Of a stretch of DNA of 64,000 bases, positions 72 through 51,858 are shown one piece after another. A program made the position numbers and the translations under genes. Each line of letters starts with the position of its first letter. The stretch's first letter is position 1. The notes beneath the pieces were generated by a model. It was not told the origin of the DNA, did not search any database, and saw nothing but the letters and a program-made list of their open reading frames with translations. The stretch lies in assembly GCA_964346665.1 (NCBI GenBank), contig CAYFVC010000067.1, positions 987-64,986 on the forward strand, given 5' to 3'. The DNA is from an uncultured archaeon (GTDB lineage Archaea; Aenigmatarchaeota; Aenigmatarchaeia; QMZP01; QMZT01).

Positions 72-377
72 TCACGAAACCTCAATCTGGTCGCCCGGGA
101 AACCGAGCTTCACAAGTATTTCCTTTATCTTTCTCCTGTGGTCTCCTTGAAGTTCGATCACACCATTCTTCATCGTCCCGCCGCACGCAAGCCTAGTTTT
201 CAATTCCTTCAAGATTCCTTTGTAATCCACGTCCCTGCTCATCCCTTCGATTATAGTCACTCTTTTGCCGAATCTCTTTTTAGTGGAGGAAACCTTTATC
301 TTCACCTCCTCCTTTGCGATGGTTTCGCATGCGCAGATGTCTTTCGGAAGACCGCAGTTTGGACAAATCTCCGTCAT
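72..377 (-). CDS. Translation initiation factor SUI1/aIF1 homolog
   Basis: The 101-aa ORF has SUI1-like length and sequence (CPNCGLP...C zinc knuckle at the N-terminus, [16 protein letters not shown] core). Its position directly after rpl29 is typical of archaeal operons. Confidence 0.8.
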
Positions 378-444
378 CTTTTGATCCCACTCTCCTTTAT
401 TTCAAAAATCGAACATCCAGATTTCGTAAAATCTAAAGCCCCTT

Positions 445-651
445 TCATTCTCCCCTTTTCTCACTCTTAATAGTTTTTATCCTGGCAATCGTCCTTCGAA
501 TTTCTTTCAGCCTGCCAGGAGAGGTTACACTTGCCCCTATATGCACGTTGGCTTTTTCCTTAGAAAGTTCCAAATTGAGTTCTTTCGTTTGCTTTTCGAG
601 TTCCTTTTCATCCATCTTTCTCAATTCTTTCATTCTCAATATCGCCATCAA
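445..651 (-). CDS. rpl29: 50S ribosomal protein L29 (uL29)
   Basis: The 68-aa coiled-coil basic protein (MKELRKMDEKELEKQTKELNLEL) has the uL29 signature. It follows rps3 in the conserved operon order. Confidence 0.8.
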   Translation of the reverse strand: MMAILRMKELRKMDEKELEKQTKELNLELSKEKANVHIGASVTSPGRLKEIRRTIARIKTIKSEKRGE

Positions 652-11027: not shown

Positions 11028-12320
11028 ATGAATCCCGAAAAACACGATTTGTTCATGGCAACCGTTGGCTCTGATTTCGAGCTAGGTGACTTCGCCAAAA
11101 AAACTGAGGGGAAGAAGGCGTACAGAATATGGCATATTAAAGAGGGAGGAGGGAGCATAGACTCGGCTCCTGTTATGTACGAGGGCAAACTTTTCGTAGC
11201 CTCCCTCGACAATTACCTTTACGCGATAAACCCTGAGACGGGGAAGTTGATCTGGAAGTTCAGAGCGGATTCCCCTTTCATTGATAATTATCCTGCATAC
11301 TGGAAAGGAAGGCTTTACATTGGAAACTACGACCAAAACTTTTACTGTATAGATGCAAAGACCGGAAAAGAAATTTGGAGATTCCGGACGGGAGACAATA
11401 TATTCGGATCATGCGCTTTGGTTGTGGGCGGCAATGTTATATTCACTTCCAAAGACTTCTACGTATACTGTCTGGATTGCAAGACGGGTAAAATGATATG
11501 GGCATTCAGAACAGGCGGGTGGAGCGCTTCGACGCCCACACTCGCTGAAAACAAGGTTTTTGTCGGTTCTTCAGATGGAAACTTTTACTGCCTTGACCCA
11601 GAAACCGGAAAAGAAATCTGGCGCTTTAAAACTTCAGGAAACATATTTTCCCAGAACAGGTTCGCTGTGAATGATGGAATTATATACTTCGGCTCGGACG
11701 ATTCGAATGTCTACGGAGTGGGTATTTCTGACGGTAAAGAGAAGTTCAGGTTCAGGACTGGAGGATTCGTAAATGTAGTCCCCAGGGTTCATAACAACGT
11801 TGTTTACATTCATGCCAACGACAGACACCTATACGCAGTTGACATTAAAACGCGAAAAGAAATCTGGAGATTCAAGACAGGACACGATGAGGGCGGAACC
11901 GAAGCAATGATGCATGATAATAAACTGTATTTCGGTTCTTCTGACGATAACCTTTACTGTTTGGATCCGAATACTGGAAAAGAAATCTGGCGCTTTAAAA
12001 CAAGCGGGCCCGTATGGACACCACCACTTATAAAGAACGATCGAATTTATTTCGGTTCCTTTGATTGCCACCTGTATTGCATCACAACGGAAGGTAAGCT
12101 CCTTTGGAGGTTCCAAACCTCAACACTAAACCAGACCAAATACGAATACGAGGAGGAAACGATTTTCGAGTTCAAGCCTCCTAAAGTCGAGGAAACAAAA
12201 GACGAGGAAAAGGATATTTATGAGGTGAAAACAGAGGTGATGCACGGCGACACATATAAAGCTAAAAGCGAATATCAAATGGAAATACACTATCAATCAA
12301 AAGGTGGGGAGTATAAATGA
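11028..12320 (+). CDS. PQQ-repeat beta-propeller protein, paralog 1 of 4
   Basis: It has about 8 repeats of the form LY(A/C)(I/L)D..TGKE(I/L)W(R/K)F(K/R)T. There is no signal peptide. The N-terminal head (FMATVGSDFELGDFAKKT) and the acidic Tyr-rich tail are conserved among the paralogs. Confidence 0.75.
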   Translation: MNPEKHDLFMATVGSDFELGDFAKKTEGKKAYRIWHIKEGGGSIDSAPVMYEGKLFVASLDNYLYAINPETGKLIWKFRADSPFIDNYPAYWKGRLYIGNYDQNFYCIDAKTGKEIWRFRTGDNIFGSCALVVGGNVIFTSKDFYVYCLDCKTGKMIWAFRTGGWSASTPTLAENKVFVGSSDGNFYCLDPETGKEIWRFKTSGNIFSQNRFAVNDGIIYFGSDDSNVYGVGISDGKEKFRFRTGGFVNVVPRVHNNVVYIHANDRHLYAVDIKTRKEIWRFKTGHDEGGTEAMMHDNKLYFGSSDDNLYCLDPNTGKEIWRFKTSGPVWTPPLIKNDRIYFGSFDCHLYCITTEGKLLWRFQTSTLNQTKYEYEEETIFEFKPPKVEETKDEEKDIYEVKTEVMHGDTYKAKSEYQMEIHYQSKGGEYK

Positions 12321-13579
12321 GCGTTCAGTTCGAGAAGGATTTTGACATAGAGATGACCGATCTGACCAAGAAGAAAAAAGGCAAGAGGTTCAGCATCCTG
12401 TGGACACACCTGCCCGGTGGCGGAAGTATCGCTTCAATCCCACTGGTCCACAACGATGTGATATACTTCGGATGTGATGATTTCTACGTTTACGCGGTTT
12501 CGCTCGAAGGTAAAGAGATATGGAAATTCAAAACGAACGGCTGCATCCCAAATGCAACTCCTCTTATAAAAGATAATATTCTCTACATAGGCTCTTATGA
12601 CGGATACTTACACGCTATAAACATAAAAACAGGAAAACTCGTTTGGAAGTTCAAAACGGGTGATAAGATATGCTTTTCTGCATCTATTCATAAAAACGTC
12701 ATCTACTTCGGTTCAAGGGACGGTTATGTTTATGCTGTTGACACGAAAGGAGAAGAATTATGGAGGTTCAAGACAGGGGATTTTGTGAGATCCGTTCCAA
12801 CCGTTCACAACAACAAGATTTTCGTTGGCTCTTACGATTGCAATCTTTACGCGTTGGACTTCAACGGTAAGGAGATTTGGAGGTTCAAAACAGGAGGAGT
12901 TATAATAAATATCGAACCGTTTTGCATAGAAAAGAACAAAATTTACTTTGGCTCTTATGACAACAACCTTTATGCAGTGGACACGGAAACGGGAAAAGAA
13001 CTATGGAGGTTCAAGGCGAGCTGGGGCGTGAACGGCGTCCCTACCCTGCATAAGGGAAGATTGTATTTCGGCTCCGAGGATGGGAATTTTTATTCGATTG
13101 ATCTGAAAGGGAATGAGGTATGGCGTTTCAAGGCGGGAGGAGGGATAGGGACCAGTCACACAGCAATTCATAAGAACACGGCTTATTTCGGTTCTGAAGA
13201 TGGGAATCTTTATGCCTTAGACATGAATACAGGGAAGGAGAAATGGAGGTTCAAAACGTTCGGACCAACATGGGCCGGCTCTATTTTATACAAAGGGATA
13301 ATATATCTCGGTTCCTGGGATTGCCACATGTACGCTATAGATCCAGAAAAGGGCAAGGAAATGTGGAGGTTCGTCACCTCCACACTGAACCAGTCCGATG
13401 AAATTCTGGAAGAGGAAACCCCTATCGAATTCGCGGAAAGGAAGGAAGAGAAAGAAGTAATAGAGGAAGACAAATACACCGTAAAGAGAACAGTCGAGAT
13501 TTCAGGGGATGTTTACACCACAAGAAGCGAATACGCTTTCAAATCAGAATACGATAAGAAGGAGAAACATTACGAATAA
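12317..13579 (+). CDS. PQQ-repeat beta-propeller protein, paralog 2 of 4
   Basis: It has the same repeat architecture as paralog 1. Its ATG overlaps the stop of the upstream paralog (ATGA), suggesting translational coupling. Confidence 0.75.
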   Translation: MSVQFEKDFDIEMTDLTKKKKGKRFSILWTHLPGGGSIASIPLVHNDVIYFGCDDFYVYAVSLEGKEIWKFKTNGCIPNATPLIKDNILYIGSYDGYLHAINIKTGKLVWKFKTGDKICFSASIHKNVIYFGSRDGYVYAVDTKGEELWRFKTGDFVRSVPTVHNNKIFVGSYDCNLYALDFNGKEIWRFKTGGVIINIEPFCIEKNKIYFGSYDNNLYAVDTETGKELWRFKASWGVNGVPTLHKGRLYFGSEDGNFYSIDLKGNEVWRFKAGGGIGTSHTAIHKNTAYFGSEDGNLYALDMNTGKEKWRFKTFGPTWAGSILYKGIIYLGSWDCHMYAIDPEKGKEMWRFVTSTLNQSDEILEEETPIEFAERKEEKEVIEEDKYTVKRTVEISGDVYTTRSEYAFKSEYDKKEKHYE

Positions 13580-13612
13580 CGAACTTATTAATTTTTCAGA
13601 CAAATTTTCACT

Positions 13613-14899
13613 ATGAAATACGAAAAAGAAAGCTTTTTCACCGCAACCGTAGGAAGCGAGATGGGATTCGAGCTTGGAGATTTCGTGAAGAAGACGAAGA
13701 CAGGGAAAGCCTTCCGTATATGGCACATAAAGGAAGGCGGGGGTTGTGTTGAATGCACTCCGGTTATCATAGACAACATCCTGTATTTCACTTCCCACGA
13801 CCACAATCTCTACGCTTACGAGTTGCCTTCAAGAAAACTACTATGGAAGTTCAGAACGGGTGCCCTGCTCAGTCAGACTACACCTGTATTTTGGAATGAT
13901 TACGTATACATTTGTTGTTATGATAATAATCTATACTGCATACATGCTAGAACAGGCAAGGAGTTATGGAGATTCCGAACCGGAGATCGATTGTATTCAA
14001 CCGCATCGGTTGGAGAAGGCATTGTTTACTTCTCCTCAAAAGACCAGTACGTATACGCAATAAACGCAGAGACTGGTAAAGAACTCTGGAAGTTCAGAAC
14101 TGGCGGCTGGACAGGCTCAAAACCAACCTTGCACGAAGGAAGAGTCTTTGTTGGCTCTTTCGACGGAAATTTGTACTGCCTAGATGTCAAAACAGGAAAA
14201 GAATTGTGGAGGTTCAGAACAGAAGGCAATATATACAATTCTGATGATTTCGCCGTAAAAGATGGAATAGTGTATTTCGGAAGCGATGACCAGAACCTTT
14301 ACGCCGTTAGCACGGATAGTGGCAAGGAGATCTGGAGATTCAGAACAGGAGGGATTGTAAACAGCGCAGCCACTATAAGTGACAACGTCATATACTTCGG
14401 TTCGCAGGACAGGAACCTCTACGCCTTGGACATGAACGGCAAGGAGTTATGGAGATTCCAGACAGGAGACAAAGTGGCATCAAAGCCTATTGTTTATAAG
14501 GGAGTCATATATTTCGGTTCAACAGACTACAACCTTTACGCTGTCACAAAAGAAGGGAAACTTTTCTGGAAATTCAGAACCGAGAATGAGATCTGGAGTA
14601 CACCTAACCTGAAGGAAGGAATAGTTTATTTCGGTTCATACGATTGCCATCTTTATGCAGTAGACGCAAAAATAGGAAAAGAACTTTTCAGATTTAAGAC
14701 CAGCAGTTCAAAGGTTAGCGAATATGAAATCGAGCAGGAAACAATATTCGAATTCAAACCACCAGAAGTCAAAGAAGAAAAGGAAGAAAAGGAAGATAGG
14801 TATGAAGTGAAAACTCAGGCCACACACGAGAGCACGTACGACACGAAAAGCGAATACGTTTTCAAGAGTGAGTACAAACAAGAGTCGGAATACAAATAA
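13613..14899 (+). CDS. PQQ-repeat beta-propeller protein, paralog 3 of 4
   Basis: It is highly similar to paralog 1 and has the same upstream sequence (ttttcactATG). It ends in an SEYKQESEYK tail. Confidence 0.75.
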   Translation: MKYEKESFFTATVGSEMGFELGDFVKKTKTGKAFRIWHIKEGGGCVECTPVIIDNILYFTSHDHNLYAYELPSRKLLWKFRTGALLSQTTPVFWNDYVYICCYDNNLYCIHARTGKELWRFRTGDRLYSTASVGEGIVYFSSKDQYVYAINAETGKELWKFRTGGWTGSKPTLHEGRVFVGSFDGNLYCLDVKTGKELWRFRTEGNIYNSDDFAVKDGIVYFGSDDQNLYAVSTDSGKEIWRFRTGGIVNSAATISDNVIYFGSQDRNLYALDMNGKELWRFQTGDKVASKPIVYKGVIYFGSTDYNLYAVTKEGKLFWKFRTENEIWSTPNLKEGIVYFGSYDCHLYAVDAKIGKELFRFKTSSSKVSEYEIEQETIFEFKPPEVKEEKEEKEDRYEVKTQATHESTYDTKSEYVFKSEYKQESEYK

Positions 14900-14931
14900 A
14901 GAGATTTTAAATTTTAACACAAGTGTTGATT

Positions 14932-16218
14932 ATGAACTTCGAAAGAAAAGACCTTTTCATGACAACCCTTGATCCCAAAATGGGATTTGAACTGGGAGAT
15001 TTCGTGAAGAAAAAACATGGAGGGAAGGTTTTCAAATCATTTTATTACAGGGGCGAGGGCGGAAATATAGACGCAAGTATCAGGGAATTCAACAATAAGA
15101 TCCTGGTGGCGTCTCTTGACAGAAGGCTCTATAAACTAGATCCAAAAACAGGCAAGAAGATATGGGAATTCAAAGCAGGAGGGTATTTTGGAACAGGTGG
15201 ACCGGAAGTTCATAATTCAAGGGTTTATATAGGTAACTACGATCACAATTTCTACTGCATAGATTTCAATACGGGAAAGGAAATCTGGCGCTTCAAGACA
15301 GGGGATGTGATTTCCTCTTCTCCGTTGCTTGTAAAGGACATGGTCATCTTCCCTTCGCATGATTACTTCGTTTATGCCCTTGATATCAAAACGAGCAAGA
15401 TGTTATGGGCTTTCCGAACAGGCGGTTGGACAAATTTCAGCCCTGTTTCTGATGGGGAGAACATATTCATCGCATCCTCAGATGGGAACCTCTATTGTTT
15501 GGATTTCGAGGGAAGGGAGAAATGGAGGTTCACCACAGGAGGGAACATGTTCACCAAGGAGCAGGCCCCAATAGTGGATGGGGTGATATACTTCGGCTCG
15601 GATGACTGTTTTATTTACGGATTGGATATCAAGACAGGGAGAGAGGTCTGGAGATTCAAGACGGGTGGGATGGTAAATAGGCCTCCTGTTATATCGGATG
15701 GAAAAATGTACATACTTTCGCATGACGGATATTTTTACTGCATAGACATGGAAACGCGAAAAGAGCTCTGGAGGTTCAAGACATCTTCAGATGAAGGTGG
15801 AACTAAAGCCCTCATATTAAAAGACAGGATAATATTCTGTTCAGCTGATTACAACGTTTACTGCCTTGACAAGAATGGAAAACTTCTGTGGAAATTCCGA
15901 ACAGGCGGACACATATGGAGCACGCCTTTGTTCTACAAAGGAAAGCTGTATGTGGGTTCATACGATTGTCGCCTTTACTGCATGGATATCGAAGGCAACG
16001 TGGAATGGAGATTCGAAACCTCGAACCTGAATCAAGCACTCTGCATAATCGAAAATGGAACTACAATGGAATTCAAGCCCCCGGAAATCACAGGGGAAAA
16101 AGAGGAGAGAGAAGAAAAATACGAAACCAAAACACAGACGGGAGGCGAAGACGCCTACAAGGTTCAAAGCGAGTACGTGTTCAAATCAGAATACAAGCAG
16201 GAATCCGAGTATAAGTAA
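14932..16218 (+). CDS. PQQ-repeat beta-propeller protein, paralog 4 of 4
   Basis: It has the same architecture. The start is probably MNFERKDLFMTT (the tool ORF begins 9 nt earlier). It ends in SEYKQESEYK. Confidence 0.7.
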   Translation: MNFERKDLFMTTLDPKMGFELGDFVKKKHGGKVFKSFYYRGEGGNIDASIREFNNKILVASLDRRLYKLDPKTGKKIWEFKAGGYFGTGGPEVHNSRVYIGNYDHNFYCIDFNTGKEIWRFKTGDVISSSPLLVKDMVIFPSHDYFVYALDIKTSKMLWAFRTGGWTNFSPVSDGENIFIASSDGNLYCLDFEGREKWRFTTGGNMFTKEQAPIVDGVIYFGSDDCFIYGLDIKTGREVWRFKTGGMVNRPPVISDGKMYILSHDGYFYCIDMETRKELWRFKTSSDEGGTKALILKDRIIFCSADYNVYCLDKNGKLLWKFRTGGHIWSTPLFYKGKLYVGSYDCRLYCMDIEGNVEWRFETSNLNQALCIIENGTTMEFKPPEITGEKEEREEKYETKTQTGGEDAYKVQSEYVFKSEYKQESEYK

Positions 16219-22835: not shown

Positions 22836-22947
22836 GCCTCGGTAGCTCAGTGGTAATTTCGTAGGAAGCAGATTACATCTGCTTCGATCGCTAGGGAGCG
22901 TTCGCTTGGTAAGCGAAAGGTCGCGAGTTCAATCCTCGCCCGAGGCT
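22836..22947 (+). tRNA. tRNA-Thr(GGU) with a ~37-nt intron in the D-loop (non-canonical position)
   Basis: The acceptor stem is 7 bp (gcctcgg/ccgaggc). The D-stem is gctc/gagc. The anticodon arm ttcgc-ttGGTaa-gcgaa is uninterrupted. The T-arm is gcgag-ttcaatc-ctcgc and the discriminator is t. About 37 extra nt lie between the D-stem halves and contain a perfect 9-bp hairpin (gaagcagat-tac-atctgcttc). Confidence 0.7.
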
Positions 22948-28953: not shown

Positions 28954-29049
28954 TAGCGGGAGGTGGAGACTCACCTCCCGAAGAAGGTTTTGAACCACCG
29001 ACCTCTGGGTTATGGGCCCAGCGAGCACTCCAGGCTGCTCCATCCCGCT
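28954..29049 (-). tRNA. Initiator tRNA-Met(CAU) with ~21-nt intron in the T-loop region
   Basis: On the minus strand the gene reads agcggga-tg-gagc-agcctggagt-gctc-g-ctggg-ccCATaa-cccag-aggtc-ggtgg-ttcaaa[21 nt]t-ccacc-tcccgct-a. A1:U72 and three G:C pairs in the anticodon stem are initiator features. The extra 21 nt sit inside the T-loop. Confidence 0.7.
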
Positions 29050-42775: not shown

Positions 42776-43072
42776 ATGAAAGCAGTGTTTTTCATCCCTG
42801 CGGAAAATTTTTCCAAAGTTAAAAACACCGTCTATGAGGACGATTTGGTGTCAAGGCAGACAATCAATTTCAGGGAAGCGCGGGCGCTAGGTTTCGAAAA
42901 GGACGGGTATTACCTCGAAATAGACGGCTCCGGCGAAGCTGTGAAGAAGACGAAAGAATTAATCGGGGACATGGGAAAGGAAGTTGATAAGAAGGAGAAA
43001 GAAGAGATTCTGAAAAAGATTTCAGAACAAGAGGAATCAGCTGCGCAGGGATTTGGCACAATTTTCGGATGA
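42776..43072 (+). CDS. Hypothetical protein
   Basis: The 98-aa ORF has an acidic C-terminus and no recognised motif. Confidence 0.3.
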   Translation: MKAVFFIPAENFSKVKNTVYEDDLVSRQTINFREARALGFEKDGYYLEIDGSGEAVKKTKELIGDMGKEVDKKEKEEILKKISEQEESAAQGFGTIFG

Positions 43073-43147
43073 CAACTTAGAATGAAAGTAAAGGTCATCA
43101 GCAGATATCTGTTGGCATAGACGAAGTCTATGTCTTTCGAAAGGTAT

Positions 43148-43385
43148 GCGTCGGTAGTCTAGTCTGGTGCTCGCCCCGCGAGAAGCGAATGGGCACTAGG
43201 ACACAGGCTTGCCAAATCGAAACCTCCAGCGGGTTTCGATGCATCCAGCAACCATAATGCAAAAAGCCTGTAACCCGGGTTCAAATCACATTTACGGGCT
43301 GGTAAAATACGTGAACATTTTTCGGCCAGCCGACTTTTGAGGAAGCCGGCTGCTCCCGTAAAAGGTGGCTATCCCGGCCGACGCA
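43148..43385 (+). tRNA. tRNA-Gly(GCC) interrupted by three introns (D-loop ~29 nt, canonical 37/38 ~50 nt, T-loop ~86 nt)
   Basis: The exons assemble a 73-nt cloverleaf. The acceptor gcgtcgg pairs with ccgacgc, and the discriminator is a. The D-stem is gtct/ggac, with the D-loop split by a 29-nt insert. The anticodon arm is caggc-ttGCCa[50 nt]a-gcctg. The T-stem ccggg/cccgg flanks ttcaaat plus an 86-nt insert. Each insert contains its own perfect hairpin. Confidence 0.65.
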
Positions 43386-43426
43386 TACAAATTAATTATT
43401 TATTATTGAAACGCGAAATAATAAAC

Positions 43427-43927
43427 ATGAAACTTTTCAAAAAGAAATCCGAGGAAATCAAGGAACTACAACCGGAAAAACTACCAAAACTAACAGAAGA
43501 GGAAAAGGAATTCGAACCTCCGGCCAAACTACCTGAAATAAAGAAAGTCCAACCACCTCCACCAAGGCCAGCGGTTTCTAGATCACCACCGATTTTCATA
43601 AAGGTTGACAAGTACAGTGATATCATAAAAAACATTCGGGATCTCAAATCACACATTCTCAACCTAAGGGATGCTCTCGATGTTCTCGATGATATGCAGA
43701 AAGAGATTATGAACGGGATAGACCTTGCACACAAAACCCTTGATGAGCTGAACATGATAATATCGAATCTGGATTCCTTTTTCATGAGACCTCAGGGAAT
43801 CGAACATCACATGGAAGAGGAAATACCAGAACCCGGAAGGATGAGTCCTGATGAGGTCGAGGGCTACATGACAGATGTCCAAACCCAGCTCCAGAAGTTG
43901 CGGTCTCAACTTAAGGCTATACAATAA
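43427..43927 (+). CDS. Hypothetical coiled-coil protein with Pro-rich linker
   Basis: The start is at MKLFKKK (43427). The tool ORF starts inside the tRNA gene and is considered over-extended. It has a PPPPRP linker followed by a coiled-coil C-terminal half. Confidence 0.4.
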   Translation: MKLFKKKSEEIKELQPEKLPKLTEEEKEFEPPAKLPEIKKVQPPPPRPAVSRSPPIFIKVDKYSDIIKNIRDLKSHILNLRDALDVLDDMQKEIMNGIDLAHKTLDELNMIISNLDSFFMRPQGIEHHMEEEIPEPGRMSPDEVEGYMTDVQTQLQKLRSQLKAIQ

Positions 43928-43962: not shown

Positions 43963-44194
43963 GCGGGGGTAGCCAAGAAACCCTTTTGCGCAAGTAAACG
44001 CACAAAAGCGTTTACGGAAAATACGCTGACGCAGGGGTTTGGCACTGGTCAAAGGCGATAGGCTCAAGACCTATTCACTTAGTGTGTTCCTGGGTTCGAA
44101 CACCGCTTTTTCAATAAAAGCGGTGGAGCAAAATGGAGCCAACGTCGCTCACATTGTTCGCTCCTGGCTTCCATCGGAATTCCCAGCCCCCGCA
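43963..44194 (+). tRNA. tRNA-Leu(CAA) with two non-canonical introns (D-loop ~65 nt, T-loop ~80 nt)
   Basis: The acceptor gcggggg pairs with cccccgc, and the discriminator is a. The D-stem gcc...ggc is separated by an over-long insert. The anticodon arm atagg-ctCAAga-cctat is intact. A 15-nt variable arm fits a class II Leu tRNA. The T-stem ctggg/cccag encloses ttcgaa plus an 80-nt insert that forms its own hairpins. Confidence 0.65.
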
Positions 44195-44505: not shown

Positions 44506-44558
44506 AAGCGAGCGAAACGTTGAAAGTATTTAAACTTTCCCTATTTTTAATAGTTAAT

Positions 44559-46622
44559 ATGCCTTACACCCTGATAATAGCTGAAAAACCGAGTGCTTCC
44601 CAGAGGATAGCTTATGCGTTAACAGATGAAAAAGTAGAAAAGGTAGGGAAGCAAGCTTATTATTTCAAGTTCAAACATTCCGGTAAGGATTTCATCGTAG
44701 TTCCTGCTGTCGGGCATTTATTCGTTCTCGACCAGAAAGAGGCGAACACGAAATGGACGTATCCTGTTTTCGATCTCCAGTGGAAACCCACATTCGAAAA
44801 CAAGAACAACCTGTGGGCGAAGAAGTATTACAAAAACATAGCAAAGCTCGCGAAGAACGCGGATGAATTCGTATCAGCGTGCGACTACGATATCGAAGGT
44901 TCGACAATAGCTTACAACATACTCAGGTTTATTTGTAACGTTAACGATGGGAAGAGGATGAAGTTTTCAACCCTTACAAAAAACGATATTCTGGATTCTT
45001 ACGCCAACGCTTCTCCGCGTCTCGATTTCCCGCAGATAGAGGCGGGGTTGACAAGGCATACCCTCGATTTCTTGTGGGGCATTAATCTTTCTCGCGCTCT
45101 CACACTCGCCCTCGAGAAAGCGAAAGGCTACTGGACTTTATCTATTGGAAGGGTCCAGGGCCCGACATTGAAAATCCTTGCGGAAAGGGAGAAGGAGATA
45201 GGGAGGTTCGTTCCGGAGCTTTTCTGGATACTTGAAATTCACGGGTTGGTAAACGGGGAGGAGATAACAGCAACGCATGAAACAGACAAGTTCTGGGAGA
45301 AGGAGCAAGCTGAAGGCATCCTTGGTAAGTGCAAAGGCAAGGAAGCTAAAGTGGATTCTGTGGAAAAGCGAATGGTCGAGCAACATCAGCCCTTCCCCTT
45401 CGATCTCACCACCCTGCAAAGAGAAGCGTTCCGAAACTTCGGTTATTCCCCGAAAATGACGCTGGATATCGCCCAGTCCCTATATGAGCAAGCCCTTATT
45501 TCGTACCCGAGAACCTCGAGCCAAAAGCTCCCCCAAAAACTCGGTCTGAAAAACATAATAGAAAAACTGTCAAAACAGAGAACTTACTCAAACCTCTGCG
45601 AAAAATTACTGGAAAAGGGGAAATTCTTTCCCAAGGAAGGGAAGAAGGACGACCCAGCACACCCGAGCATTTTCCCCACAGGTCAGCTCCCGAAGAAACT
45701 AAACCCCTACCAATCGAAAGTCTACGATTTAATCGTAAGGAGATTCCTTTCGACATTCGCGAACCCCGCAGTTAGGGAGCACATAATATCGGTAATAGAT
45801 GTGAACGGCGAAAAGTTCAAGGCTTTCGGGATGAGAACGGTCAAACCGGAATGGATGGAGTTTTACGGGAAATATGCGAAATTCAAGGAGCAGATTCTTC
45901 CCGAAATGAAGAAAGGGGATTCCATCGAAAACCCGGAAGTTCGAATGGACGAGAAGGAGACCTCCCCTCCAAACCGCTATTCACAGGCATCAGTTCTCAA
46001 GGTGATGGAGGAGAAAAACCTCGGAACGAAGGCTACTCGAGCGCAAATCCTCCACACGCTTTATGAAAGAGAATACATAAGAGACAAATCAATAAGGGTC
46101 ACTAGCCTGGGATCAGCGGTTATCGAAGCTCTCGAAAAACATTGCCCTGATATAATATCAGAGGAACTCACGAGGAATTTCGAGAAGGAAATGGAGATAA
46201 TACAGGAGGGGGAGAAAAAGAGAGAGGAGATAATAGAGGATGCTAAGAAAGAGCTCGAAAAAATCCTCCAGAAATTCAAGGAGCACGAAATGCACATAGG
46301 TTCCGAATTGAAGGAGGGTGTCAAAGAATTCCAGGAGATTTCACACTACATTGGAGTCTGTCCGAAATGTAAGGGTGAATTGAGAATACTCCATTCACAC
46401 ACGACACACAAACGTTTCGTTGGTTGCTCGAACTACCCGAAATGCAAGCACGGCTACCCGCTTCCGCAGAAAGGGAAGATAACGGTCCTGGACGAGAAAT
46501 GCGAGAAGTGCGGACTGAACATAATCCAGGTCAAGCAGTTCAAACGAAGACCCTGGAAGTTGTGCGTGCAGTGCGGGTTCGTGGTTAAGAAGAAGAAAAA
46601 GGAAGAAACTAAAAAATCCTGA
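44559..46622 (+). CDS. topA: DNA topoisomerase I (type IA) with C-terminal zinc ribbons
   Basis: It has a Toprim start (MPYTLIIAEKPS) and the active-site Tyr region (ISYPRTSS). There are C-terminal C4 zinc ribbons (CPKCKG...C..C and CEKCG...CVQCG). The start is at the internal Met. Confidence 0.85.
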   Translation: MPYTLIIAEKPSASQRIAYALTDEKVEKVGKQAYYFKFKHSGKDFIVVPAVGHLFVLDQKEANTKWTYPVFDLQWKPTFENKNNLWAKKYYKNIAKLAKNADEFVSACDYDIEGSTIAYNILRFICNVNDGKRMKFSTLTKNDILDSYANASPRLDFPQIEAGLTRHTLDFLWGINLSRALTLALEKAKGYWTLSIGRVQGPTLKILAEREKEIGRFVPELFWILEIHGLVNGEEITATHETDKFWEKEQAEGILGKCKGKEAKVDSVEKRMVEQHQPFPFDLTTLQREAFRNFGYSPKMTLDIAQSLYEQALISYPRTSSQKLPQKLGLKNIIEKLSKQRTYSNLCEKLLEKGKFFPKEGKKDDPAHPSIFPTGQLPKKLNPYQSKVYDLIVRRFLSTFANPAVREHIISVIDVNGEKFKAFGMRTVKPEWMEFYGKYAKFKEQILPEMKKGDSIENPEVRMDEKETSPPNRYSQASVLKVMEEKNLGTKATRAQILHTLYEREYIRDKSIRVTSLGSAVIEALEKHCPDIISEELTRNFEKEMEIIQEGEKKREEIIEDAKKELEKILQKFKEHEMHIGSELKEGVKEFQEISHYIGVCPKCKGELRILHSHTTHKRFVGCSNYPKCKHGYPLPQKGKITVLDEKCEKCGLNIIQVKQFKRRPWKLCVQCGFVVKKKKKEETKKS

Positions 46623-47352: not shown

Positions 47353-47673
47353 TTTTGCTAGTTACGCTGGGAGAGGGATTTTCTCACCGCTTAGATTGGT
47401 GTTTCGAACCCCCAAGCCCAGATGGGCACACGCTATTAAGGAGCCTTAAAGGCTTATTCCAAGCGTGCTCCTTAGCCGTTCGGACATCCCAGCGTGATAT
47501 AATATTCTATTGGGGTTATTTTTAAGTTTATTCAACACGTTTTAGCCTTGATTTGCAATTAGAACACATTCCCGTCGAAACATCGTAGTGTTCGCTACAC
47601 ACGATCGCCCCGCAGAATACGCAAGAGTGCGGATGCTTTGTGGGTTTCCCGCATATTGAACATAAACCCGAGA

Positions 47674-50600
47674 TCATTTCCCCCCCCTCCTAGCTTCCGC
47701 TCTCCTCTCCAGCAAAAGGTATACAAGTATGCTAACCAAGGCTATCGAGAGGAAGACTATCATTATCTCGTTTATAGGAATCCTCTCCATCTCTGGTGTG
47801 ATCTTTCGTTTCGTAAGGTTGGTGTACTTTATTATATCCCTGCAGTTTTCGAGCGCACTTTCTGTCAACTCCCTCGCTCTATCAATATTATCCTCGCCGA
47901 GTTCCCTTTCAGCCTCGAGGATGAGTTCTGTCAGATCCAAGCATTCAGGATTGTCTTGAAACAAATCCTTCGCGAGACTTATCCTGTCCTGTATTTTTGT
48001 TCTCCCGTAAATCGGTCTCAGGTAGATTGTGCTTGACTGGTTGAAACTCGGGTTTCTCACAATTCCCGTTACCTTTATCTCATAAGTTTCCTTCGTTAGC
48101 TCATATGTTGTTATGGTCAGGGTGGTGTTCACCTTATCCCCGATACCGAGCTGGCTAACGTATACCCTGCTGAGATCAAGTGAAACCTCATCACTCTCGT
48201 TAACGTAAGCAGTTATGTTCACGCCGTTAAGCGTAACCTCCCCCGTGTTTTCCAAGGTCACGTTTGCGGACGTTTCGTTATAAGATCCTATCCTTTCCAT
48301 TGGGGAGACTGTTATGGTCAGCGAGGCGACCCTCGCTTGAGAAGGGACCATCCTGGTTCTTGTCTCAGTAATTATTTGAATTTCGGGTTCCTGTTCAACA
48401 AGGCTCACGTTAAGGGATATGTTGTTGCTTGTTGTGCTAAACTCGGAATCGTTAACGGTGAAAACGACATATTCCAACCCGTACCAGTCCGTATCTGGTG
48501 TGAGGGTGACGACCCCCTTTCCTGTCCAGTTCGCAGGAGTCAAATTCACAGGACCGGTCTGCCCATCTATCAGAACAGTTATGTGAGAAAGCGCTGTGTA
48601 ATTAATTGTCAGATTGTTATCATCGTTAGAAACATTATTCTCATTGTCAGGATCACGGAAGTTGTAGGAGAGGATTATGTTCTTGTTGTTTGAGTTCATG
48701 TTCCAGCTTTGATTTTGTATGGGGTAGATTTGTTCAGGGGGCCTGTTCTTGTTTAATATGGTTACTCCCCATGTATCATAGTCCGTTAAGTACGAATCGG
48801 TGACCTCGAGCCTGATTGTCCAGCTCCCTGATTCATCGAAATCTGGGGTGTATTGCCAAGAGTTGTCCCCTTGACAGTAATCCACATTGTCTATCTGTGT
48901 TCCATCTCTAAACCATGTGCAGAAGAGGTCGTCTCCGTCAGGATCCGTGACGCTTATCGCGAAAAGAACGGTTTCATTTTCGTAAAAAGTATCGCTAGGG
49001 ATCACCCCACCTATATCAGCAGAGGGTGGTTTGTTTATCGATAATACCTTGAAATCGACAAGTTGCCACCCTGTAGCGTTGTATGGTTGTGTGAAATTCC
49101 CGCTGTCCGTTACGGTCACGTTTATGGTGTAGTTTCCTACTTCACCACTTGTAAAAACACTCGTTCGGTTCACCACACCCGTTGTGTTGTTGACATCGAA
49201 TATCGAGCAGTTCGAATCCATATCCACTCTTGAACAATTAATGAATGTTATGTTGTAATAGAATGGAATATCATTCTCCTCATCGGTTGCGGTCAAACTT
49301 AGGTCCATGAAGAAAGTTGAGTTTTCAAAGCCGGTCGTATTCGTGAAGCTGAATTCAGGGGCATCGTTAACGGCATGTATAGTCAGGTTGAATTCCTCCC
49401 AGTCTATTGAATTGTTGCTGTCAACAACGCTTATGTTCAAGACGTATGTGAAATTGTGCGAATTGTTTGCCCAGGAATCATCGGAGGCCGTGAAATTAAT
49501 AACCCCTGTGGTTGAGTTTATGGTGAACAAAGAAGGTCCTGAAATAAACGTTAGGTTATAAGTTAGGGTTTCCCCGTATGGCGTTTCCGAATCTACGTCC
49601 GTCGTGTTCTCTCCCATGTTGCAAAAGTATTCGTTATCCTCGTATGTGTAATTCACGCACGAAAAATTCAGAACGGGCGGGTCGTTTAAGTTGTAAACGG
49701 TGAAATTCACAAGGATGAAATCCTCCCTGCTCCACGTGTCGTTAACGATTATCTTAACCGTGTAGTTCCCAACCTGTGAATTGTTCACAGAGGTGTAATT
49801 CATTACCCCCATTGCAGGACCGGGAGGCCAAAGGCTATTATCAGTGTCTATTGGGAATAAGGTATCGTTAAGTAGCGAACCGTTGTAATAGGTTTCCGTT
49901 ATAAACGTTAGGTTATCGGTTGCGTTGTCACGGTCCGTTGCGTTTATGGAGAGGAATAAGGACTGTCCCTGCGTAGTGAACTGAGGTGAGACGGAGGTCG
50001 TTATGTTAGGCTTGTAGTCCGGGATGACGGTGAAGTTGAACTCCACCCAGTCTGTGAGATTCCCTCCATCCTTAACGGATACGTTTAACGTGTAATTCCC
50101 CGAATCTTTTCTCAAAGGGTTGGTATAGTTTATAACCCCTGTCTGGTTGTTTATTTCGAAAATCGAGCAGTTCGTATCGCTTTCATTGAATGTCTTGTTA
50201 CAATAAGTGAAATTAATTTCGAAGGTTATAGTCCCGTTCACTGGATCGTTGTACGGAACGTAAGAGGGGAAATCATCCGGGTCTGTTGTGTTTTCCCCTA
50301 CATCGCAGTAGTATTCAAGCCCCTGGACAGAGTAATTATTACAAAGGAAGTTGAGGTTTGGAGGATCATTTATGTTCGTAACGGTGAAATTCACAAGTAT
50401 TGAATACGTACCGTTCTCCTTGCCGTCGTAAACCGAGACGTTTATCGTGTAATTCCCGACTTGACTGTTTCCGACAGGAGTGTAGTTCATGGTTGCATTC
50501 CCTAGACTCGTCCCGTTATCTAGATAAAGGGTCTCATTCAGGGCTATGGGGAAAAGGCTCGAATTGTAATAAACGGACAAATTCCTGTAAAGGGTTGTTG

Positions 50601-51858
50601 TATTGAAAACCAACGTCCCGTTGTCTATGTCACTCGCGTTTACAACTAACGTACGGCTCTGGTTCTGCGACCAGAACTGATTGGAAACGGGATCGATAAC
50701 CGGAGGGTCGTTTATGTCGATAACGCTGAAATTCAAGACCTGCGAATCCGTCTCGTTGGAAAGCCACGTGTATGGAGGGGTGGAGGTTCCTGTCAGGTTG
50801 TCTCCAGGGTCGGTAACGGTGTAATTTATGGTGTAGTTTCCAACATCCAAATTTGTGAAGATGCTTGTTCTATTTATTTCGCCTGTCGTGTTGTCTATCG
50901 TGAACAAATTTGAACAGTCCGTTACGTTCGTGTGCTCTGGGTTGAATGGCCTGTAACATTCTAGAAAAGTGATGTTGAAAAAGAAAGGCCCGCTAGGGGT
51001 TTCCTCATCCGTCGCGTCAATATCTTGGTAGAATGAAGAGTTCTGGTAGGAATCGGAAGGAAGGTTTTGAAGGCTTGGCTTATCATTGACCGCATTCACT
51101 ATGAAGGTTTTGTTGGCGACTGCTCCCTCTCCTATTGGGTCCTGTACAGTAAGCGATACCTCGAACTCACCGCAATCAGTATCGCTAGTAATGTCAACTG
51201 TGACACTTCCTGTTGCCGAATCCATACTGAAACCATTGAATTCGGTTCCAGCAACATAACTGTAGGTGAGGTTGTTTTCATCGATATCATCTATATCATA
51301 ACAATCCACGCTGAAATCGTAGTTACATGTAGTATCTTCATAGCATGTTTTGTCTGAAAGGGGAACATATATTCCGGCCGGGGTGTTCAACACCGTTATG
51401 TTATCTGTTGCATTCAGCACATCAAAATTCTGAGAGGACCCGTCACAAGTAACATTCCAATAATAAACCCCCCTTGAATCAAATGATTTGTTATGCTCGT
51501 AAAGCAGAGAAGATGAATTGAACCACATAACTACTGGAGAAGTCCAACTCCCTGAAAGGTTAAAACTTATGTTACATTCAATCCCTGACCCATTTATCGA
51601 TTCCCCAGAGGTTAGATTTGTGTAGTTCGCGAAAAAGTTTGGGAGGGTTGTAGAACTTGGACCACCTCCTTGGGGACTTCCCTCGGCATAAACCTTGTAA
51701 GAGCCTCCTTGGGAATCAGCCGAATCCCACAGAGCAAGGCTCGCGTTCTCCCCTGTCACGGATATGAAAAACCCTGTGAACACCAAGGGATAGGAAATAA
51801 AAATCGCCAAAGTTGCCAATACTATCAAAGCTATCCAGACGCCTGAATACCCTCTCAT
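47674..51858 (-). CDS. Giant cell-surface adhesin-like protein (signal peptide, repeated cadherin/Ig-like modules, C-terminal TM anchor)
   Basis: The 1394-aa ORF has an N-terminal hydrophobic signal and dozens of N-x-S/T sequons. VNDKP/INDPP modules recur about every 100 aa. The C-terminal TM is IMIVFLSIALVSILVYLLL, followed by a basic tail. Confidence 0.6.
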   Translation of the reverse strand: MRGYSGVWIALIVLATLAIFISYPLVFTGFFISVTGENASLALWDSADSQGGSYKVYAEGSPQGGGPSSTTLPNFFANYTNLTSGESINGSGIECNISFNLSGSWTSPVVMWFNSSSLLYEHNKSFDSRGVYYWNVTCDGSSQNFDVLNATDNITVLNTPAGIYVPLSDKTCYEDTTCNYDFSVDCYDIDDIDENNLTYSYVAGTEFNGFSMDSATGSVTVDITSDTDCGEFEVSLTVQDPIGEGAVANKTFIVNAVNDKPSLQNLPSDSYQNSSFYQDIDATDEETPSGPFFFNITFLECYRPFNPEHTNVTDCSNLFTIDNTTGEINRTSIFTNLDVGNYTINYTVTDPGDNLTGTSTPPYTWLSNETDSQVLNFSVIDINDPPVIDPVSNQFWSQNQSRTLVVNASDIDNGTLVFNTTTLYRNLSVYYNSSLFPIALNETLYLDNGTSLGNATMNYTPVGNSQVGNYTINVSVYDGKENGTYSILVNFTVTNINDPPNLNFLCNNYSVQGLEYYCDVGENTTDPDDFPSYVPYNDPVNGTITFEINFTYCNKTFNESDTNCSIFEINNQTGVINYTNPLRKDSGNYTLNVSVKDGGNLTDWVEFNFTVIPDYKPNITTSVSPQFTTQGQSLFLSINATDRDNATDNLTFITETYYNGSLLNDTLFPIDTDNSLWPPGPAMGVMNYTSVNNSQVGNYTVKIIVNDTWSREDFILVNFTVYNLNDPPVLNFSCVNYTYEDNEYFCNMGENTTDVDSETPYGETLTYNLTFISGPSLFTINSTTGVINFTASDDSWANNSHNFTYVLNISVVDSNNSIDWEEFNLTIHAVNDAPEFSFTNTTGFENSTFFMDLSLTATDEENDIPFYYNITFINCSRVDMDSNCSIFDVNNTTGVVNRTSVFTSGEVGNYTINVTVTDSGNFTQPYNATGWQLVDFKVLSINKPPSADIGGVIPSDTFYENETVLFAISVTDPDGDDLFCTWFRDGTQIDNVDYCQGDNSWQYTPDFDESGSWTIRLEVTDSYLTDYDTWGVTILNKNRPPEQIYPIQNQSWNMNSNNKNIILSYNFRDPDNENNVSNDDNNLTINYTALSHITVLIDGQTGPVNLTPANWTGKGVVTLTPDTDWYGLEYVVFTVNDSEFSTTSNNISLNVSLVEQEPEIQIITETRTRMVPSQARVASLTITVSPMERIGSYNETSANVTLENTGEVTLNGVNITAYVNESDEVSLDLSRVYVSQLGIGDKVNTTLTITTYELTKETYEIKVTGIVRNPSFNQSSTIYLRPIYGRTKIQDRISLAKDLFQDNPECLDLTELILEAERELGEDNIDRARELTESALENCRDIIKYTNLTKRKITPEMERIPINEIMIVFLSIALVSILVYLLLERRAEARRGGK

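Follow-up and report, generated by a model that had tools for sequence, protein, structure and literature searches.

The stretch of archaeal DNA analysed here (64 kb; hereafter the window) contains, at positions 43148-43385 on the forward strand, a 238-nt locus that yields a 73-nt tRNA cloverleaf, GCGTCGGTAGTCTAGTCTGGTAGGACACAGGCTTGCCAAGCCTGTAACCCGGGTTCAAATCCCGGCCGACGCA, once three inserts are removed. Three-segment deletions of the 238 nt were enumerated exhaustively by script, and every solution led to the same single product, with insert sizes invariably 29, 50, and 86 nt. ARAGORN called this spliced 73-nt product as tRNA-Gly(gcc), with an acceptor stem of 7 bp, a D stem of 4, an anticodon stem of 5, and a T stem of 5. 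The initial annotation of the locus, made from the letters alone, had described a 238-nt gene for a 73-nt product, with inserts of 29, about 50, and about 86 nt; the coordinates read as it described, and the enumeration together with the ARAGORN call on the product shows the proposed cloverleaf to be exact. It had also given the stems as they are, with the acceptor stem GCGTCGG/CCGACGC pairing over 7 bp without a mismatch, the anticodon stem reading CAGGC/GCCTG, and the T stem CCGGG/CCCGG, and had made no mention of the one U-G pair included in the D stem, GTCT/GGAC. With a proper anticodon loop, G18 and G19, a T loop of TTCAAAT, and a discriminator base, the joined exons make up a canonical cloverleaf.

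Exon 1 (43148-43167, 20 nt) covers tRNA positions 1-19, including 17a, and carries the 5' strand of the acceptor stem, U8 and A9, the D-stem strand GTCT, and AGTCTGG of the D loop; its contiguous counterpart in two intronless related loci, L005 and L006, is identical or differs by 1 nt. Intron 1 (43168-43196, 29 nt) lies in the D loop at position 19/20 and is followed by exon 2 (43197-43214, 18 nt; positions 20-37), which supplies T20 and A21, the 3' D-stem strand GGAC, A26, the anticodon-stem strand CAGGC, and the loop sequence TTGCCA, the anticodon GCC being at 43210-43212. Intron 2 (43215-43264, 50 nt) occupies the canonical position 37/38, and exon 3 (43265-43285, 21 nt; positions 38-59) continues with A38, the 3' anticodon-stem strand GCCTG, the variable loop TAAC, the T-stem strand CCGGG, and TTCAAA of the T loop. 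Intron 3 (43286-43371) has the 86 nt first proposed for it but had been placed after the T loop, whereas it actually lies inside the loop; positions 58/59 to 61/62 are sequence-equivalent, and 59/60 gives the best fit to a bulge-helix-bulge (BHB). Exon 4 (43372-43385, 14 nt; positions 60-73) completes the gene with T60, the 3' T-stem strand CCCGG, the 3' acceptor strand CCGACGC, and the discriminator A73, and no CCA is encoded at the 3' end. Just upstream, a GTAT leader (43144-43147, forward strand) can pair with ATAC at 43385-43388, formed by the discriminator and the trailer, which lengthens the acceptor helix by 4 bp into an 11-nt perfect inverted repeat at 43144-43154 and 43378-43388 (GTATGCGTCGG/CCGACGCATAC); relatives have only 1-3 such extra leader/trailer pairs.

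Standard tools do not see the unspliced gene. ARAGORN returned no match to the region with or without its intron options or with lowered thresholds, and Rfam searches of 43000-43550, at gathering thresholds or at E values up to 10, found no tRNA, no C/D-box or other known RNA in the introns, and no other credible family. At E values up to 10, the region gave only three matches, all far below threshold, and the families concerned are unrelated and include no intron; a match to sR42 at 43035-43105, at 10.7 bits where the threshold is 38, is noise. Group I or group II self-splicing introns were rejected, as the inserts are 29, 50, and 86 nt and have no Rfam match at the gathering threshold, and a split or permuted tRNA gene was rejected because the four exons are colinear on one strand within 238 nt.

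A tRNA-Gly gene is found at the same syntenic place in eight related loci, upstream of a topoisomerase gene, which in the window is a topoisomerase IA gene recognised by Pfam at 44520-46622, 1.1 kb downstream of the tRNA. Two of the eight, L005 and L006, have no intron: the gene is a contiguous 73 nt that is 72/73 identical to the product predicted here, is called by ARAGORN, and scores 69.8 bits against the Rfam tRNA family RF00005. Measured by this identity to contiguous syntenic genes, the resemblance of the spliced product to tRNA-Gly(GCC) is far beyond chance. The remaining six carry introns in differing combinations, with L001, the closest relative (88%), interrupted at 59/60 only, L003 at 37/38 only, L004 at 37/38 and 59/60, L007 at 19/20 and 59/60, L015 at 29/30 and 59/60, and L002 at 15/16, 29/30, and 59/60. 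A scan of metagenome contigs for exact exon 3, with A or G allowed at its ninth base, brought in 87 further loci. By spliced alignment, some 35 different tRNA-Gly genes were well resolved; their anticodons are GCC, TCC, or CCC, they have 0-4 introns, and all of them splice to 73 nt, giving 11 distinct products in total. The inserts of these orthologues sit exactly at the three junctions of the window gene and at two others. In L078, introns occupy the same three sites with different sequences (16, 63, and 62 nt), and four introns, at 15/16, 19/20, 37/38, and 59/60, interrupt the genes at L033 648-914 (+), L038 1742-2034 (-), and L042 1936-2220 (-), the last identical to L087. The exact mature sequence of the window gene is encoded again by L001 with one intron, by L015 and L068 with two, and by L033 with four.

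This pattern of invariant exons and of introns that vary in presence, length, and sequence is the signature expected of selection acting on the spliced RNA. In the 11 distinct products, standard pairs fill 99.6% of the cloverleaf cells, and both-sided changes occur in the acceptor stem at 4:69 (C-G or U-A), 5:68 (C-G or U-A), and 7:66 (G-C, A-U, or G-U), whereas slid controls had no both-sided pair changes at all. The covarying acceptor positions are more than 220 nt apart in the window. Since acceptor pairs covary across the inserts, the two ends of the gene evolve as one helix, which excludes a chance match and leaves very little probability for a pseudogene.

The junctions themselves can adopt the geometry of archaeal tRNA splice sites. 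A BHB consists of two 3-nt bulges on opposite strands with a 4-bp helix between them, and relaxed versions exist. Under the archaeal rule, the last six exon bases comprise four helix bases, which pair with intron positions -6 to -3, and two bulge bases, and each cut is followed by the third base of its bulge. This rule reproduces the canonical 37/38 case in the window and a known anticodon-intron pair, and it picks a single register for each intron among all those that preserve the product, the rejected registers having 0-2 central pairs per intron. For intron 1, the central helix pairs exon GTCT (43162-43165) with intron GGGC (43191-43194) at 4/4, two of the pairs being G-U; the bulges are GG|U and AC|U, the inner helix GCTCGC/GCGAAT has one mismatch, and the outer helix is the D stem, reached after an A14-A21 mismatch. 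Two registers preserve the product here, and only one has 4/4 central pairs. For intron 2, whose motif is complete, TTGC (positions 32-35, 43209-43212) pairs with GCAA (43259-43262), again at 4/4, with bulges CA|A and AA|A, an inner helix of 2 bp, and the anticodon stem as outer helix (6/6 pairs counted); the intron also contains a 9-bp hairpin, ATCGAAACC/GGTTTCGAT. For intron 3, TTCA (positions 54-57) faces TGGC (43366-43369), the outer helix is the T stem with 5 bp, and the 3' bulge UA|U is clean, while the loop around the 5' site is looser and leads into an 8-bp helix, TTTACGGG/CCCGTAAA; the chosen register is the best of the four that preserve the product. The perfect hairpins that the initial annotation saw within the inserts are real (43170-43182, 43216-43223/43233-43240, and 43327-43332/43347-43352) but do not define splicing, as the decisive helices pair exon with intron, and the inner helix of intron 1 faces competition from the CTCGC/GCGAG hairpin.

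A central helix of this kind recurs throughout the family. Of 67 related introns, 48 have a full 4/4 helix and 14 one of 3/4, and the remaining five, with a poorer helix, are mostly mis-alignments by the script; off-register controls reached 4/4 in 23 of 804 cases (3%). Site 59/60 is occupied in 26 related genes, mostly with TTCA/TGAA at 4/4. By our own calculation from base-pairing odds, the chance of obtaining the 4/4, 4/4, and at least 3/4 helices of the window is ~1e-4 with registers fixed and at most ~3e-3 with all registers allowed.

Taken together, the syntenic orthologues, the covariation, and the unique BHB registers support the tRNA-Gly(GCC) with three introns, one canonical at 37/38 and one each in the D and T loops, that was first read from the sequence. 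The locus is very probably a functional tRNA-Gly(GCC) gene of an archaeon of the Aenigmatarchaeota, with a precursor of at least 238 nt from which three BHB introns, at 19/20, 37/38, and 59/60, would be spliced by proteins. The gene structure, its junctions, the conservation and covariation of the exons, and the BHB-compatible geometry are observed features of the locus. For the enzymes, the order of events, and the expression of the gene, established knowledge of archaeal tRNA splicing suggests a likely course. The exon bases before each splice site would pair with four bases near the 3' end of the intron and so place the cleavage sites in bulges on opposite strands; the endonuclease EndA would cut both bulges of every motif, and an RtcB-type ligase would join the four exons, the introns presumably being released as circles, circularised by RtcB. 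Trimming by RNase P and RNase Z would then give the finished 73-nt tRNA, together with CCA addition, which is proposed because no CCA is encoded. As the three introns are in three different arms, no order of removal is imposed on the window gene. In L033, the introns at 15/16 and 19/20 are just 5 exon nt apart, and the second motif reaches 4/4 only after the first intron is removed, so this gene would need sequential splicing, which matches what has been described in other archaea (PMC8450103).

The window has five tRNA genes, none of them free of introns (nine in total), and ARAGORN and Rfam locate just one of the five (22881-22947 by ARAGORN). A tRNA-Leu(CAA) gene of 232 nt (43963-44194, +) begins 580 nt downstream of the Gly gene and was missed by ARAGORN and Rfam when unspliced; its spliced 86 nt are called tRNA-Leu(caa) by ARAGORN after removal of a 66-nt D-loop intron (43979-44044, +; CCAA/TTGG, 4/4) and an 80-nt intron at 59/60 (44101-44180, +; TTCG/CGGA, 4/4). 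On the reverse strand, a 129-nt gene (47365-47493) splices to 83 nt called tRNA-Ser(gga), i.e., tRNA-Ser(GGA), its introns at 37/38 (47435-47456, 22 nt) and 59/60 (47379-47402, 24 nt) both having 3/4 central helices. The 96-nt gene for initiator tRNA-Met(CAT) (28954-29049, -) has a 21-nt intron at 59/60 (28968-28988) with a near-perfect BHB, in which TTCA/TGAG pairs at 4/4 and the outer and inner helices have 5 bp each. The fifth gene, for tRNA-Thr(GGT) (22836-22947, +), carries a 40-nt D-loop intron at approximately 22855-22894 (AGTG/CGCT, 4/4); the Rfam match spans all 112 nt, and ARAGORN reports a truncated 67-nt gene at 22881-22947.

The introns of the Gly gene belong to families that recur in other genomes. 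Intron 1 has a near-identical counterpart at 19/20 in L007 and L074, and related introns that are shorter or longer are found in L033, L078, L024, L046, and L053. An intron 96% identical to intron 2 is found at 37/38 of L003 and L021, and in members of its family in L004, L026, L042, and L052 the hairpin stem has undergone compensatory changes. Intron 3 has a 54-nt match at 93% in the 59/60 intron of a tRNA-Gly(CCC) gene, L048, with the same TGGC. The gene of L001, the closest relative, has neither intron 1 nor intron 2, and its 59/60 intron is unrelated. The intron-2 family is defined by a hairpin, NNNGAAACC..GGGTTTCNNN, with a covarying outer stem, a conserved AAACC..GGGTTT core, and an CATCCTGCAACC tail. 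Its sites are 37/38 of tRNA-Gly in six genomes, 59/60 of tRNA-Gly in L090, and 59/60 of tRNA-Leu in L054 and L078. An inverted member lies in the 37/38 intron of tRNA-Thr(CGT) in L055 (~230-460, minus strand), where the antisense alignment is identical at 37/40 and the sense alignment matches only the palindromic stem; the inverted orientation hints at movement at the level of DNA. Ten copies of the family were found in 742 kb. Sixteen matches to AAACCNCCAGCGGGTTT in viral contigs were set aside as chance, all being in unrelated sequence without the flanking stem or tail.

These distributions raise the question of where the inserts came from, and one possible answer, which we hold tentatively and think less probable than not, is that they are DNA-level mobile mini-elements resembling miniature inverted-repeat transposable elements, tolerated in tRNA genes as they can be removed from the RNA. 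This proposal concerns origin and is compatible with splicing. The spread of the intron-2 family over two sites of tRNA-Gly and one of tRNA-Leu and its inverted copy in tRNA-Thr speak for it, as do the introns of tRNA-Leu in the window, of which the D-loop intron resembles the 59/60 intron of the L074 Gly gene and the T-loop intron resembles both the 59/60 intron of the L002 Gly gene and the D-loop intron of the L001 Leu gene. It also fits the absence of introns 1 and 2 from the closest relative when the more distant L007 and L003 have near-identical copies. Against this, no terminal inverted repeats, target-site duplications, or transposase were seen, all 10 family copies in the 742 kb are inside tRNA genes, a single inverted copy was found, and reverse splicing at the RNA level followed by recombination could account for the copies in the same orientation. 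A wider form of the proposal, in which the tRNA introns of the whole clade would be an actively mobile population of mini-elements that moves at the DNA level among D, anticodon, and T loops and among tRNA genes, in either orientation, and has nearly saturated the tRNA set, is similarly speculative. If it were true, the 3' segment of each family would complement a tRNA loop (TGAA the T loop, GCAA the anticodon loop of this gene, and GGGC the D arm), an element would rebuild a cleavable BHB wherever it landed, and intron 2 of the window would be one such element.

Several observations weigh against a functional, spliced tRNA-Gly gene. Some of them concern the predicted folding of the precursor with ViennaRNA. 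The minimum free energy structure (-94.6 kcal/mol, z-score -4.64) keeps the acceptor, anticodon, and T stems, but a fold constrained to the three BHBs reaches -77.1 kcal/mol, 17.5 kcal/mol worse, and the ensemble probability of the central helix is ~0 for both intron 1 and intron 3. Intron 1 is captured by a 7-bp competitor, CUGGUGC/GCACUAG, with a probability of ~1, which leaves the splice sites opposed within a continuous helix, and intron 3 is captured in the minimum free energy structure by UCAC/GUGG. In both introns, the competition comes from the first intron bases, which can pair with the same segment near the 3' end of the intron that the preceding exon bases would use: the start of intron 3 repeats the exon bases (UCA in both), and in intron 1 GGGC is sought by both intron GCUC and exon GUCU, the D arm containing the direct repeat GTCT-A-GTCT. 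Intron 3 has, in addition, just 3/4 central pairs, with a U54-C mismatch, and a loose 5' site. Its homologue in L048 keeps TGGC and has the competing helix broken (UCCC for UCAC), a change that would favor the BHB conformer and lends it weak support. The BHB geometry is thus present, and significant across the family, but the BHBs of introns 1 and 3 are only tentative. These two would be relaxed motifs of the kind that require an enzyme of broad specificity (PMC5829648, PMC6379350).

The processing and expression of the gene provide further points on the contrary side. Neither EndA nor RtcB was found in the 64-kb window by Pfam on 50 open reading frames (ORFs), by a motif scan, or by phmmer with the EndA of L013. 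That protein, encoded on the minus strand of a Micrarchaeota metagenome-assembled genome (MAG) a few kb from the topoisomerase gene, is an ORF of ~395 aa with the EndA motif GFKFGTHFRLY..HSKH; it was the sole EndA from the motif scan and is epsilon2-like, and its length is that expected of the three-unit epsilon2 endonuclease of ARMAN-2. A broad-specificity endonuclease in the host of the window, which the initial annotation took the three introns to imply, would fit the literature (PMC5829648). There is also no clear archaeal TATA box upstream of the Gly gene, whose counterparts in L001 and L015 begin 13-20 nt beyond the stop codon of the ORF before them. Several tRNA genes are preceded, at a distance of 5-35 nt, by a small hairpin and then T(T)TCGA(A) (43116-43142 in the window; also upstream of tRNA-Gly in L003, L004, and L006); in relatives this reads, for example, GACGCA..TGCGTC TTTCGA, and in the window AGAC..GTCT..TTTCGAA. 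The same combination is present inside unusually long introns (L076, 167 nt with two copies, and L086). As a tRNA-specific upstream signal, TTTCGAA was rejected, being enriched twofold (65 against 30 expected) but with most of its window copies within ORFs. Lastly, a second, intronless tRNA-Gly(GCC) gene may lie outside the 64 kb.

This last possibility would suit a decaying or silenced pseudogene, disrupted by insertions in a cell served by an intact copy elsewhere, and the blindness of ARAGORN and Rfam to the unspliced gene, the mismatch in the central helix of intron 3, the folds that disfavor the BHBs of introns 1 and 3, and the lack of an obvious promoter could all be understood in the same way. 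The exons tell otherwise, having no mismatch to the products of L001, L015, L033, and L068 and one to those of the intronless L005 and L006, in a family in which introns turn over completely. The gene occupies the syntenic slot of the Gly gene of all relatives, the homologue of intron 3 in L048 has kept the 3/4 helix with TGGC, and a second copy of exon 3 was not found in the window. Moreover, with five of five tRNA genes in the window interrupted, interruption is the norm in this genome. We therefore regard a pseudogene as highly improbable and retain the functional tRNA-Gly gene. A chance resemblance or an assembly chimera of tRNA-like pieces, for which only the silence of the standard tRNA finders at the locus would speak, has a negligible probability and is already refuted by the comparative data, as the product is identical at 73/73 in four independent assemblies and at 72/73 to contiguous genes, the same junctions recur in dozens of independent metagenome contigs, and the precursor combines its low z-score with intact acceptor, anticodon, and T stems.

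The host of the window, as judged from the relatives of its topoisomerase and from its archaeal Pfam markers, is a DPANN archaeon of the Aenigmatarchaeota. The topoisomerase has relatives of 71-88% identity on MAG contigs with conserved gene order, and those of the MAGs that have a phylum name are Candidatus Aenigmatarchaeota, while the closest (80-88%) are labelled only "uncultured archaeon"; remoter relatives, at 45-46% identity, are in Micrarchaeota. Pfam scans of the window, which has a G+C content of 42.8%, identified the S3Ae ribosomal protein, PCNA, a RadB/Rad51-like protein, and Cbf5/TruB among the archaeal markers. Elsewhere, the window encodes four tandem paralogues of 420-431 aa each at 11028-16218 (+), which are PQQ/BamB-like beta-propeller proteins, and several very large asparagine-rich predicted surface proteins, such as one of 1394 aa at 47674-51858.

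A tRNA gene with three introns, considered by the initial annotation a rarity known from only a few archaeal lineages, is indeed uncommon, but it is no longer a record. According to reviews and the tRNAscan-SE 2.0 paper, archaeal tRNA genes have as many as three introns, chiefly in Thermoproteales (PMC4033280, PMC8450103), where genes with multiple introns are attributed to Pyrobaculum, Thermofilum, and Caldivirga (Sugahara et al. 2007/2008 and Fujishima et al. 2010, as cited in PMC4033280 and PMC8450103). These are similar to the genes described here in being colinear, in carrying short introns of the BHB or relaxed-BHB type, at most three per gene, whose sites are canonical and noncanonical and include the D and T loops, and in being missed by standard tRNA finders. 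Similar introns in different tRNAs were likewise read there as intron transposition (Fujishima et al. 2010, as cited in PMC4033280). In contrast, the host here is a member of the DPANN Aenigmatarchaeota and not a crenarchaeon, theirs is an (alpha-beta)2 endonuclease with a Crenarchaea-specific loop, and the relatives of the window gene have up to four introns, with one family inverted.

A likeness in intron load is also offered by the Asgard classes Atabeyarchaeia and Freyarchaeia, in which a 2024 study found introns in 92-95% of tRNA genes (PMC11291895). In that study, nearly every tRNA gene is interrupted, over half have several introns, many of them noncanonical, genes with three and four introns are tabulated (Supplementary Data 4), and tRNAscan-SE misses some introns. 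Four introns per tRNA is therefore not a new record, even though it exceeds the "up to three" of the reviews. The Asgard archaea belong to another superphylum, and the likeness is one of description; the evidence also differs, being complete curated genomes in their case and presence/absence polymorphism among close relatives in ours. More distant still is the nuclear tRNA-Ile(UAU) of Cyanidioschyzon merolae (PMC3728597, PMC9602550), which is eukaryotic, with another endonuclease complex, and of unrelated lineage and sequence.

Within the same superphylum, other DPANN archaea, among them ARMAN-2/Micrarchaeota with epsilon2 EndA and those with an alpha4 EndA that has an L3 loop, also have noncanonical and multiple introns, tied to endonucleases of broadened specificity (PMC3239211, PMC5829648). 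A 2018 survey of DPANN linked endonuclease inserts to disrupted tRNA genes and predicted that some such genes were undetected; Aenigmatarchaeota were not included (PMC5829648). The type of tRNA-Gly gene reported here is thus rare but already known, and the literature searched yielded no description of tRNA introns in its host lineage. The gap predicted by that survey matches what we see, in that tRNA counts and completeness estimates of Aenigmatarchaeota MAGs obtained with tools such as ARAGORN or Rfam will be too low, and the heavy intron load would imply a relaxed-rule endonuclease in this clade too. To the groups with heavy, multi-site intron loads, namely Thermoproteales, some Thaumarchaeota, and two Asgard classes, our results add a DPANN lineage. 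The gene itself will not surprise a specialist, but a single tRNA with 0-4 introns, drawn from families that are shared across sites and tRNAs and in one case inverted, provides unusually clean material on the gain, loss, and movement of introns, and the clade-wide picture should be useful for understanding how tRNA introns spread in archaea.

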